Origin: Escherichia coli
GTDB taxonomy: Bacteria; Pseudomonadota; Gammaproteobacteria; Enterobacterales; Enterobacteriaceae
Assembly (NCBI RefSeq): GCF_003334815.1
Contig: NZ_QOWO01000003.1
Direction: 5' to 3' (one strand)
DNA: 64,000 nucleotides
The notes below the pieces were generated by a model that did no database searches, was not told the DNA's origin, and was given only the letters and a program-made list of their open reading frames with translations. Of the stretch, positions 7,030 through 33,016 are shown piece after piece. The number at the start of each line of letters is the position of its first letter. Position 1 is the first letter of the stretch. Position numbers and translations under genes: made by a program.

Positions 7030-8830
7030 TCGCCTTCTCCTTCTTATTGGCTGCTTCCGCCTTATCGGCTGCATCCGCTTCGCCACCGTAAACGCGTTTA
7101 GCTGGCGGCAGCGTAGTAATCTTCACGTCGCTGTACTCCAGGCGAGTCGTGCCATCAGCATCGCGGAAGGCGAGGGTGTGTTTGAGGAAGTTGACGTCGT
7201 CACGCTCGGTGCAACCTTCGTCCAGACGCTGGTGCGCGCCGCGGGACTCTTTACGTGCCATTGCGGAGTGCGCCATACATTCAGCAACGTTCAGACCGTG
7301 GCCCAGTTCAATGGTGTAGAGCAGGTCGGTGTTGAACACGCTGGAAGTGTCGGTGATGCGCACGCGCTTGAAGCGTTCCTGCAGCTCTGCCAGCTTGTCG
7401 ATGGTTTTCTGCATCAGTTCCGGCGTACGGTAGATACCGCAGCCTTCTTCCATAGCCAGGCCCATTTCGTCGCGGATCTTCGCCCAGTTTTCGCCGCCAT
7501 CCTGGTTAACCAGATCTTTCAGACGTTGTTCAACGCCAGCTGCCTGCGCTTCAATTGCCGCTTCGTTGCCATTACCGGCAGTTGCTGCACGCTCTGTCGC
7601 TTGTTCACCGGCCAGACGGCCGAAGACCACCAGTTCCGCCAGGGAGTTAGAACCCAGACGGTTTGCACCGTGCAGACCAACAGAGGAACATTCACCCACG
7701 GCGAACAGACCTTTAATGCGGGTTTCACAGTTCTGATCGGTTTCGATACCGCCCATGGTGTAGTGTGCGGTCGGACGTACCGGAATCGGTTCTTTAACCG
7801 GATCGACGCCAACGTACGCTTTCGCCAGTTCGCAGATGAACGGCAGACGTTCATGCAGTTTTTTCTCGCCGAGGTGACGCAAGTCGAGATAAACCACATC
7901 GCCACGCGGCGTGGAGATGGTGTTGCCTTTACGCCATTCGTGCCAGAAGGCCTGAGAGACTTTGTCGCGTGGACCCAGTTCCATATATTTGTTTTTCGGC
8001 TCGCCCAGCGGAGTTTCCGGGCCCATGCCGTAATCTTGCAGATAACGGTAGCCATTTTTGTTGACCAGAATACCGCCTTCACCGCGGCAACCTTCGGTCA
8101 TCAGGATACCGGAACCTGGCAGACCGGTTGGGTGATACTGAACGAATTCCATGTCACGCAGCGGAACGCCGTGGCTTAGCGCCATACCCATACCGTCACC
8201 GGTAACGATGCCGCCGTTGGTGTTGTAACGATAAACGCGACCCGCACCGCCAGTAGCCATAACGACCGCGTTAGCACGGATCTGCACCAGCGTGCCTTCC
8301 ATCATGTTCATTGCTACCAGGCCGCGAACATGACCATCATCAACCAGAATATCCAGCACGAAATGTTCGTCAAAACGCTGGATCTGCGGGAATTGCAGAG
8401 AGGTCTGGAACAGCGTGTGCAGCATATGGAAGCCGGTCTTATCGGCGGCGAACCAGGTGCGCTCGATTTTCATGCCGCCGAAGCGACGTACGTTGACGCT
8501 ACCATCCGGGCGACGGCTCCATGGGCATCCCCACAGTTCCAGTTGGGTCATTTCGGTTGGGCAGTGGTGGACGAAATAATCCACGACATCCTGCTCACAC
8601 AACCAGTCGCCACCCGCTACTGTATCGTGAAAGTGATATTCGAAGCTGTCATGATCCTGCGCGACAGCGGCGGAGCCCCCTTCTGCAGCAACGGTATGGC
8701 TACGCATCGGGTATACTTTTGAGATTAGTGCGATTTTTGCATTCGGATTTGCCTGCGCGGCAGCAATTGCAGCACGTAATCCCGCGCCACCGGCGCCTAC
8801 AATGGCAAGATCGGCTTGAAAGGTTTGCAC
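7022..8830 (-). CDS. frdA: Fumarate reductase flavoprotein subunit
   Basis: 602-aa ORF with [13 protein letters not shown] motif and [10 protein letters not shown] covalent-FAD histidine. Confidence 0.97.
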
Positions 8831-27072: not shown

Positions 27073-28353
27073 TTGTTTGACCGTTATGATGCTGGTGAGC
27101 AGGCGGTACTGGTACACATCTATTTTACGCAAGACAAAGATATGGAAGACCTCCAGGAGTTTGAATCTCTGGTCTCTTCCGCCGGTGTCGAAGCATTGCA
27201 GGTGATTACCGGTAGCCGTAAAGCGCCGCACCCAAAGTATTTTGTAGGTGAAGGTAAAGCAGTTGAAATTGCGGAAGCTGTCAAAGCGACGGGTGCTTCG
27301 GTCGTTCTTTTTGACCATGCCCTGAGCCCGGCGCAAGAGCGTAACCTGGAGCGTTTGTGCGAGTGTCGTGTTATCGACCGCACCGGCCTTATTTTAGATA
27401 TTTTCGCCCAACGTGCGCGTACCCATGAGGGTAAGTTGCAGGTTGAGCTGGCGCAGCTGCGCCATCTGGCTACGCGCCTGGTGCGTGGCTGGACCCACCT
27501 TGAAAGACAGAAAGGCGGGATAGGTTTGCGTGGTCCGGGTGAAACCCAGCTCGAAACCGACCGTCGTTTGTTGCGTAATCGCATCGTGCAGATACAGTCG
27601 CGCCTGGAAAGAGTTGAAAAGCAGCGTGAGCAGGGGCGGCAATCGCGTATCAAAGCCGACGTTCCTACTGTTTCGCTGGTGGGATATACCAACGCCGGTA
27701 AATCTACCCTTTTCAATCGCATCACCGAAGCGCGGGTCTACGCGGCAGACCAGTTGTTTGCCACCCTCGACCCGACGTTGCGGCGTATTGACGTTGCAGA
27801 TGTCGGTGAAACCGTACTTGCAGATACCGTAGGGTTTATTCGCCACCTGCCGCACGATCTGGTGGCGGCATTTAAAGCCACGTTACAAGAGACGCGGCAA
27901 GCCACATTACTGCTGCACGTCATTGATGCGGCGGATGTGCGTGTACAAGAAAACATCGAAGCGGTGAATACGGTTCTTGAAGAGATCGACGCTCACGAGA
28001 TCCCAACCCTGCTGGTGATGAACAAGATCGATATGCTGGAAGATTTCGAACCGCGTATTGATCGGGACGAAGAGAACAAACCGATCCGTGTCTGGCTTTC
28101 CGCACAGACCGGAGCGGGGATACCACAGCTTTTTCAGGCTTTGACGGAGCGGCTTTCCGGCGAGGTGGCGCAGCATACATTGCGTCTGCCACCGCAGGAA
28201 GGGCGTCTGAGAAGTCGTTTTTATCAGCTTCAGGCAATAGAAAAAGAGTGGATGGAGGAGGACGGCAGCGTAAGTCTGCAAGTTCGTATGCCGATCGTTG
28301 ACTGGCGTCGCCTCTGTAAACAAGAACCGGCGTTGATCGATTACCTGATCTAA
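27073..28353 (+). CDS. hflX: Ribosome-associated GTPase HflX
   Basis: 426-aa ORF initiating at TTG (27073); G-domain motifs GYTNAGKST. Confidence 0.93.
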
Positions 28354-32386: not shown

Positions 32387-32590
32387 TTCTGGTACGCCTG
32401 GCAGATATTTTGCCTGCCGGGCGAACAGTGTGATACATTGCTGTGTCGGGTAAGCCATTACGCTATCCGACACAGTGTTAAATCCTCGCTTTTTTCCTTC
32501 CCCGAACTGAAATAAATTAGCGACACAGCTTGTGGCTGGTTTATCATCAATATAAATGTATTTTTTCCCGATTTCCCTTTTGAGGTTGAT

Positions 32591-33016
32591 GTGCAGTTAA
32601 CGAGTTTCACTGATTACGGATTACGTGCGCTGATCTACATGGCGTCATTGCCAGAAGGGCGGATGACCAGTATTTCTGAAGTGACTGACGTCTACGGCGT
32701 CTCCCGTAATCATATGGTCAAAATAATCAATCAACTTAGTCGTGCCGGCTACGTGACTGCTGTTCGTGGAAAAAATGGCGGCATTCGCCTGGGTAAACCG
32801 GCGAGTGCGATACGTATTGGTGATGTGGTGCGCGAGCTGGAGCCCTTATCGCTGGTGAATTGCAGCAGTGAGTTTTGCCACATTACACCTGCCTGTAGGT
32901 TGAAACAGGCACTTTCTAAGGCCGTGCAAAGTTTTCTTACGGAACTGGATAACTACACGCTTGCCGATTTGGTTGAAGAGAATCAACCGCTTTATAAATT
33001 ATTGCTGGTGGAGTGA
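32591..33016 (+). CDS. nsrR: Nitric-oxide-sensing Rrf2-family repressor NsrR
   Basis: 141-aa ORF from GTG; Rrf2 HTH and Cys ligands. Confidence 0.93.

Follow-up and report, generated by a model that had tools for sequence, protein, structure and literature searches.

In Escherichia coli, GUG and UUG start codons are decoded by formylmethionyl-tRNA (fMet-tRNA), and initiation at these codons is several-fold less efficient than initiation at AUG. Here we describe four genes with such start codons, i.e., hflX and rsgA with TTG and nsrR and aidB with GTG, which are encoded in a stretch of 64,000 nucleotides of the E. coli chromosome ranging from yjeJ to ytfB (assembly GCF_003334815.1, contig NZ_QOWO01000003.1), referred to as the window in the following. 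Among the typical annotated prokaryotic start codons approximately 82% are AUG, 14% are GUG and 4% are UUG, resulting in a share of non-ATG starts of approximately 18% (Kohl 2022). It was shown that start codons are under weak selection, with AUG being favoured in general, and that weak start codons tend toward compensation by a stronger Shine-Dalgarno sequence (Belinky 2017). All four genes resemble the ordinary GUG/UUG initiation of E. coli, which accounts for approximately 14% (GUG) and 3–4% (UUG) of its annotated starts, in that an NTG codon is placed 5–9 nt past a Shine-Dalgarno sequence. For rsgA, nsrR and aidB no difference to this ordinary initiation is apparent, whereas the UUG of hflX is far more conserved than expected from the weak selection usual for non-AUG starts (Belinky 2017).

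A further system to compare with is the autoregulation of infC, encoding initiation factor 3 (IF3), via its AUU start codon. In infC, as in hflX, a conserved sub-optimal start codon is located on a gene for a translation factor, the dosage of which it sets in infC and probably also in hflX. However, AUU is a non-canonical codon that is discriminated against by IF3 itself, thereby closing a feedback loop, while the UUG codons of hflX and rsgA belong to the canonical class. To our knowledge, UUG is not a codon class discriminated by IF3, and neither HflX nor RsgA is known to influence which start codon is chosen.

As judged from sequence comparison, the observations as a whole are very probably best explained by four genuine GUG/UUG starts, each located behind a good Shine-Dalgarno sequence, which do not form a cluster and which differ in their evolutionary status from gene to gene. 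Mechanistically, the 30S ribosomal subunit would dock on the Shine-Dalgarno sequence, fMet-tRNA would read the GUG or UUG codon and the protein output per mRNA would be lowered.

Placement of the Four Start Codons

The chromosome of E. coli strain 23CRST014 matches a slice of 24.9 kb surrounding the finding with 100% identity. A match to this slice is present in each of the 5426 complete E. coli genomes, and in 4589 of them it covers 80% or more of the slice. The RefSeq (PGAP) annotation of the 100%-identical genome NZ_AP045828.1 was used as annotation reference. The energies of the duplexes with the anti-Shine-Dalgarno (anti-SD) sequence were computed against the 16S rRNA 3′ end for every in-frame start candidate, and alternative protein models were searched by exact-sequence look-ups in a protein collection with 15 billion entries. 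For comparison, a single HflX scan of species-representative genomes, with 10-kb flanks, yielded 80 loci (L004–L083) from about 45 genera of the Enterobacterales, Vibrionales, Alteromonadales, Aeromonadales, Orbales and Pasteurellales, with 63–100% HflX protein identity. The genes rsgA, nsrR, psd and sometimes aidB were counted only where they are carried in the 10-kb hflX flanks. A distant set comprises 10 further hflX lineages taken from 50%-identity cluster representatives (42–61% identity). The features of the four genes are as follows:

27073–27075, plus strand: hflX start codon TTG, read directly from the sequence and followed by TTT GAC CGT TAT (FDRY)
27060–27064, plus strand: hflX Shine-Dalgarno sequence GAGGG, 8 nt upstream of the TTG, anti-SD duplex of −6.3 kcal/mol
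27073–28353, plus strand: hflX coding sequence (CDS), 426 aa, from RefSeq annotation and PDB depositor sequence
18019–18021, minus strand: rsgA start codon TTG, read directly and followed by AGT AAA AAT AAA (SKNK)
18031–18035, minus strand: rsgA Shine-Dalgarno sequence AGGAG, 9 nt upstream of the TTG, −6.9 kcal/mol
16969–18021, minus strand: rsgA CDS, 350 aa, from RefSeq, PDB and K-12 length
32591–32593, plus strand: nsrR start codon GTG, read directly and followed by CAG TTA ACG (QLT)
32582–32586, plus strand: nsrR Shine-Dalgarno sequence GAGGT, from direct reading and anti-SD duplex
32591–33016, plus strand: nsrR CDS, 141 aa, from RefSeq and K-12 length
40675–40677, plus strand: aidB start codon GTG, read directly and followed by CAC TGG CAA (HWQ)
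40662–40669, plus strand: aidB Shine-Dalgarno sequence GGAGGGAG, 5 nt upstream of the GTG, −9.8 kcal/mol
40675–42300, plus strand: aidB CDS, 541 aa, from RefSeq, PDB and K-12 length
40657–40662, plus strand: rival in-frame aidB starts TTG (40657) and ATG (40660), each with an anti-SD duplex of only −2.8 kcal/mol

Direct reading of the sequence confirmed the codon positions given for hflX, rsgA, nsrR and aidB in an earlier prediction, which had been made from the sequence of the window alone and is called the original prediction below. These non-ATG starts are already part of the reference annotation: all four codons are CDS starts in NZ_AP045828.1, and the CDS lengths equal those of the curated record of K-12 MG1655 (rsgA 1053 nt, hflX 1281 nt, nsrR 426 nt, aidB 1626 nt). 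In this record the CDS start at 4400672 (hflX), 4391509 on the minus strand (rsgA), 4406190 (nsrR) and 4414275 (aidB). Moreover, the sequences deposited in the PDB start at the same residues (HflX 426 aa; RsgA 350 aa; AidB 541 aa, MHWQTH...), although these represent constructs of the depositors and not native N-termini.

In each of the seven non-ATG genes annotated in the window, the anti-SD duplex of the annotated start surpasses that of every other in-frame candidate, and for hflX, rsgA, nsrR and aidB the duplex energies range from −6.3 to −9.8 kcal/mol, with a spacing of about 3–8 nt in the duplex computation. The hflX TTG and the nsrR GTG are the earliest possible starts past an in-frame stop codon; the next in-frame ATG codons, encoding Met24 in HflX and Met17 in NsrR, are not preceded by a Shine-Dalgarno sequence, and a start at these positions would remove peptide segments conserved across orders. 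For rsgA, an in-frame TTG exists upstream at position 18054, again devoid of a Shine-Dalgarno sequence, and the upstream start candidates of rsgA and aidB are not conserved in the relatives. Furthermore, the relatives carry in-frame stop codons 1–6 codons upstream of the aligned start in all four genes and the peptides are conserved from residue 2 onwards. These stop codons exclude longer forms as conserved protein and, together with the conservation from residue 2, they bear out the claim of the original prediction that the conserved N-termini need these codons. All four genes thereby show what is canonical for GUG/UUG starts, namely a codon positioned at the N-terminal boundary and a Shine-Dalgarno sequence at functional spacing. 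What speaks against this assignment is that published start mapping does not list the genes: the TRAINSPOTTER and TetRP start-mapping supplements contain no entries for these four genes, and none of them is named in the text of the Ribo-RET preprint.

Conversely, the non-ATG starts might represent annotation errors, with the true starts being Met24 for hflX, Met17 for nsrR, the ATG at 40660 for aidB or the TTG at 18054 for rsgA, which is highly improbable. This explanation draws on alternative models that exist in public collections, as exact look-ups identified an HflX of 403 aa starting from Met24 on at least 200 contigs, an NsrR of 125 aa starting from Met17 on 152 contigs and an extended RsgA of 361 aa on 3 contigs; the 125-aa NsrR forms are also present in records of Salmonella, Shigella and Raoultella. 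In addition, an in-frame ATG is located five codons upstream of the aidB GTG, in loci of Citrobacter and Pseudocitrobacter (L005, L006, L033) the rsgA TTG is preceded by an in-frame ATG at a distance of eight codons, and for Salmonella RsgA models of 358 aa exist, including a chain in the PDB (2rcn) with 8 extra N-terminal residues compared to E. coli. However, the alternative starts reach duplex energies of −2.8 kcal/mol or worse compared to −6.3 to −9.8 kcal/mol for the annotated ones, residues 2–23 of HflX and 2–16 of NsrR are highly conserved across orders, and the in-frame stops of the relatives leave no room for longer forms. Extensions of the AidB allele of the window to 546 or 547 aa are absent from the collection of 15 billion proteins. 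In some genera the start of rsgA is truly ambiguous, which is not the case in E. coli. The truncated HflX and NsrR proteins entered hundreds of public records because gene callers preferred a downstream ATG, showing that the concern raised in the original prediction, i.e., that automated annotation could misplace these starts, was justified. As a practical warning, these truncations cut conserved parts of the N-terminal domain of HflX and of the winged-helix domain of NsrR.

Conservation of the hflX Start Codon

At the hflX start, the codon is TTG in 79 out of 79 alignable loci; the Haemophilus locus, in which the N-terminus has diverged, was left out. Minimum parsimony changes were counted for 78 hflX genes arranged in a neighbour-joining tree. 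At the first base of the start codon 0 changes are seen, compared to a minimum of 10–39 changes (mean 29) at each of the 52 fully conserved four-fold degenerate sites of hflX, and the retention of TTG thus goes far past the neutral expectation. A change from T to A or to G at the first base would still result in a functional and normally favoured start codon, yet not a single change is found, suggesting that this T is under purifying selection. The comparison therefore indicates that the hflX TTG is under strong purifying selection across the Gammaproteobacteria. Genes starting with ATG were used as controls in the same loci and show ATG throughout (hfq 80/80, hflK 76/76, purA 60/60). The start of mutL, which is ATG in E. 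coli, is TTG in three and GTG in one of the loci L004–L083, and this switching of a start codon within the same genomes makes the contrast to hflX even sharper.

Seven of the 10 distant hflX lineages start with TTG, a further one with GTG and the remaining two with ATG, and several other 50%-identity cluster representatives of HflX are written with a literal leading Leu. Within the species, a region of 63 nt around the hflX start is identical in 5418 of 5426 E. coli genomes. No exact match to an ATG variant of the hflX start was found among the 5426 genomes, which is uninformative on selection, as the diversity within the species is low. In a preprint on the cryo-electron microscopy structure of the E. 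coli 50S-HflX complex it was stated that hflX begins with the less frequent TTG, for which a seven- to eight-fold lower efficiency compared to ATG was cited. A discussion of the conservation of the hflX UUG was not found in the literature searched.

The Invariant Octamer and a Predicted Hairpin at the hflX Start

The conservation extends beyond the start codon, and two elements overlap it:

27073–27080, plus strand: octamer TTGTTTGA, invariant in 79 loci, including positions +1 and +6, which are not constrained by the encoded protein
27070–27105, plus strand: predicted 13-bp hairpin around the hflX start, in which −3 to +11 pairs with +21 to +33 (RNAfold)

In these loci codon 2 is TTT and never TTC, with 0 changes at its third base compared to 4–23 changes at 23 other conserved two-fold pyrimidine sites. 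Relative to the hflX start, positions −14 to −9 form a conserved purine-rich block. As far as can be judged from the aligned loci, the depth of the TTG conservation together with the invariant TTGTTTGA constitutes a modest new observation. One might speculate that the strong Shine-Dalgarno sequence and the invariant UUGUUUGA together form a control element of ancient origin that is kept for its own sake, which we regard as possible but doubtful. In such an element UUG would be required for a specific behaviour, e.g., a tuned start-codon hairpin or a stress-dependent initiation, and this behaviour would set the amount of the ribosome-splitting HflX made from the hfq-hflX mRNA. This would account for the finding that no AUG, no GUG and no UUC at codon 2 occur across about 45 gammaproteobacterial genera.

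A more specific explanation is that TTG is kept as part of an RNA element, namely the hairpin at 27070–27105 sequestering the start codon and acting as a tuned translational brake or as a heat sensor in a gene of a sigma-32 operon. U(+1) and U(+6) would form G-U wobbles therein. The partner strand (+21 to +33) is located in codons 7–11, including those for Gly8-Glu9-Gln10-Ala11, and the fold is predicted by RNAfold at approximately −16 kcal/mol in E. coli. The same fold is predicted in most of the 73 distinct sequences, with 86% of the cells paired compared to 36–49% in slid controls. In silico replacement of TTG by ATG or by GTG costs +2.7 kcal/mol and +0.85 kcal/mol, respectively, and the hairpin is more stable with the native non-coding bases −6 to −1 than with random hexamers (median percentile 0.07). 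Moreover, wobble U's occupy both of the invariant free positions, and +24, which varies least among the four-fold sites of hflX, pairs with A(+8) in the predicted structure. However, synonymous recodings are equally stable (median percentile 0.41), suggesting that the stem is a consequence of the conserved peptide. Only one covarying pair is found, the hairpin is not predicted in the majority of the distant lineages that still use TTG, no match in Rfam was obtained, the fold is predicted not to melt up to 50 °C, where it still reaches −11.8 kcal/mol, and in the literature searched no paper ties hflX to an RNA thermometer. In light of the synonymous recodings, the distant TTG lineages lacking the hairpin and the single covarying pair, the hairpin as cause of the frozen TTG was kept as a minor rival and appears unlikely. 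An RNA thermometer at hflX is not favoured, with no predicted melting up to 50 °C and no link in the literature searched. The hairpin, which is a prediction only, might contribute to a low initiation at hflX, and any selection acting on it is hypothetical.

Thermometers of the rpoH and fourU type share several features with the hflX start, as there is likewise a predicted hairpin occluding the start of a gene of a heat-shock operon, with G-U wobbles and a partner strand in the coding region. Unlike these, the hflX hairpin shows no predicted melting in the physiological range, is devoid of covariation support beyond the single pair, gives a negative result in the synonymous control and is not conserved wherever TTG is. 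A search for Rfam families near the four starts yielded none; the only matches were two tRNA-Gly.

Probable Role in HflX Dosage and Linkage to hfq

The most likely reason for the conservation of the UUG is the dosage of HflX relative to Hfq. The hfq-hflX transcript gives rise to both proteins, and UUG would keep the level of the ribosome-splitting GTPase HflX far below that of Hfq, in concert with the differential mRNA decay known to occur after hfq. It was shown that hfq-hflX is among the operons with a conserved pattern of differential decay and 3′ ends (Dar and Sorek). The hfq stop codon is located at 26995–26997, 75 nt upstream of the hflX start. A terminator-like hairpin followed by a T-run is present at this stop (26986–27005) and a second hairpin of the type GGGGA...TCCCC is located in the hfq-hflX intergenic region at about 27020–27047; these two hairpins (26986–27047) fit the published differential decay of hfq versus hflX.

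Some findings are at odds with a role of UUG in HflX dosage relative to Hfq. In one distant lineage (L092) the hflX TTG is kept though there is no hfq upstream, and of the two distant lineages with an hflX ATG one (L094) does have hfq upstream. Furthermore, a pure dosage argument does not account for the invariant TTT at codon 2. An upstream open reading frame (uORF) or termination-reinitiation at the TGA (27078–27080) inside TTGTTTGA was considered and rejected, since the frame ending there contains no start codon; a coupling of hflX by termination and reinitiation is thus not indicated. In Firmicutes and Actinobacteria, hflX is subject to attenuation by leader peptides (e.g., the uORFC-6-1 motif), which resembles the hflX described here in that control is post-transcriptional. 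This attenuation uses an upstream open reading frame and a terminator, whereas hflX of the window has no uORF and is located directly behind hfq.

If the hflX UUG proves to be functionally required, the control of HflX dosage, which is of importance for antibiotic tolerance as well as for the rescue of ribosomes during heat stress, would gain a translational layer. In the cryo-electron microscopy preprint on 50S-HflX it was shown that arabinose-driven over-expression of HflX impairs growth under chloramphenicol, and it is noted there that the dosage of HflX needs to be tight.

Start Codon Evolution of nsrR, rsgA and aidB

The weak initiation region of nsrR is said to keep the repressor scarce and to shape the behaviour of its regulon. 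The aligned nsrR start is GTG in 27 and ATG in 4 (Vibrio, Aliivibrio) of 31 loci, a retention that largely goes past neutral expectation. The GUG is conserved in Enterobacterales and may serve to keep the repressor scarce. In agreement, an inefficient translation of nsrR is reported in the title of an earlier study (Chhabra & Spiro 2015, Microbiology 161:2029). The nsrR start is embedded in an AUGUG sequence, and the out-of-frame ATG at 32589 would give only Met-Cys-Ser-stop (32589–32600). This GATGTG context recurs in most of the Enterobacteriaceae loci. The gene nsrR was listed as an atGTG gene with the Shine-Dalgarno sequence GAGGU, a PaxDb abundance of 27.6 parts per million and no predicted ambiguity (Kohl 2022, Table 2).

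The aligned start of rsgA is TTG in 9 loci, all of them Enterobacteriaceae, GTG in 10 and ATG in 1, i.e., it is non-ATG in 19 of 20 loci, and retention beyond neutrality is apparent only for non-ATG as a class. It is plausible that rsgA requires some weak start, either UUG or GUG, rather than a particular codon. A weak rsgA start acting as feedback on the quality of ribosome assembly was rejected, as a ΔrsgA strain does not relax start-codon scrutiny; according to the literature start-codon recognition is unchanged in this strain, and an infC-like autoregulation is therefore not indicated.

For aidB, the aligned start is GTG only in E. albertii and ATG in the 9 other loci, so that retention past neutrality is not seen (1/10). 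The comparison points to a recent change from ATG to GTG in the Escherichia lineage, which is probably near-neutral or buffered by the unusually strong Shine-Dalgarno sequence. A GTG behind a strong Shine-Dalgarno sequence is in line with the compensation pattern described by Belinky et al. The start region of aidB is identical in 4899 of 5404 E. coli genomes, and no exact match to an ATG variant was found among the E. coli genomes, which, given the low diversity within the species, is again uninformative on selection.

An explanation covering all four genes would be neutral drift among ATG, GTG and TTG, the weak starts having no functional meaning. Start codons are in general under weak selection (Belinky 2017), a GTG start of aidB is seen in Escherichia only, and both rsgA and psd, the latter with TTG in 2 and GTG in 3 loci, flip between TTG and GTG, all of which is compatible with drift. 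However, with no change at the first base of hflX in the face of 10–39 at neutral sites, drift is rejected for this gene; moreover, nsrR kept GTG in 27 of 31 loci, and rsgA carries ATG in only 1 of 20 loci though ATG is generally favoured. Neutral drift as a common explanation for the four weak starts is thus rather improbable.

The claim of the original prediction that these codons imply a low translation efficiency by design consequently holds in part: it is in agreement with the conservation in hflX (TTG 79/79) and nsrR (GTG 27/31), it is plausible for rsgA, and it does not apply to aidB. A weak start might accordingly be anything from deeply constrained, as in hflX, to recent and probably inconsequential, as in aidB. 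The contrast between hflX and aidB shows that the identity of the start codon alone cannot be read as design.

Start Codon Census of the Window

The original prediction had furthermore described a cluster of weak start codons, and this was not supported by a census of the 68 annotated CDS in the window. Of these, 61 start with ATG, four with GTG (frdA, mscM, nsrR, aidB) and three with TTG (psd, rsgA, hflX), including three non-ATG genes that had been overlooked before:

16870–16872, minus strand: psd start codon TTG, from RefSeq annotation, census and anti-SD duplex
15880–15882, minus strand: mscM start codon GTG, from RefSeq annotation, census and anti-SD duplex
8828–8830, minus strand: frdA start codon GTG, from RefSeq annotation, census and anti-SD duplex

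The non-ATG share amounts to 7/68 (10.3%), compared to 12 genes expected from the prokaryotic baseline, and is thus at or below expectation. In binomial tests, P(X ≥ 7) for non-ATG starts is 0.53–0.97 and P(X ≥ 3) for TTG starts is 0.33–0.52. An enrichment of non-ATG starts in the window was ruled out by the census and these tests. Three consecutive genes on the minus strand, rsgA (TTG), psd (TTG) and mscM (GTG), have non-ATG starts (15880–18021).

Other Features of the Window

Tandem tRNA-Gly genes are located at 18872–19056, two in the window compared to three in K-12 MG1655 (glyV, glyX, glyY). Between rplI and ytfB a block of genes (approximately 53069–62205) encodes a TRAP transporter, an FAD-binding protein, a CoA-transferase, an enoyl-CoA hydratase, a sugar-phosphate isomerase, a 3-ketoacyl-ACP reductase and a TetR regulator. 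In the closest RefSeq strain this block contains an IS1 and two pseudogenes; the open reading frames of the window at 55934–58015 and 58012–59553 are intact. Finally, an open reading frame of 17 codons (19293–19346; yjeV in K-12) is annotated on the strand opposite to queG and overlaps the 3′ end of this gene.

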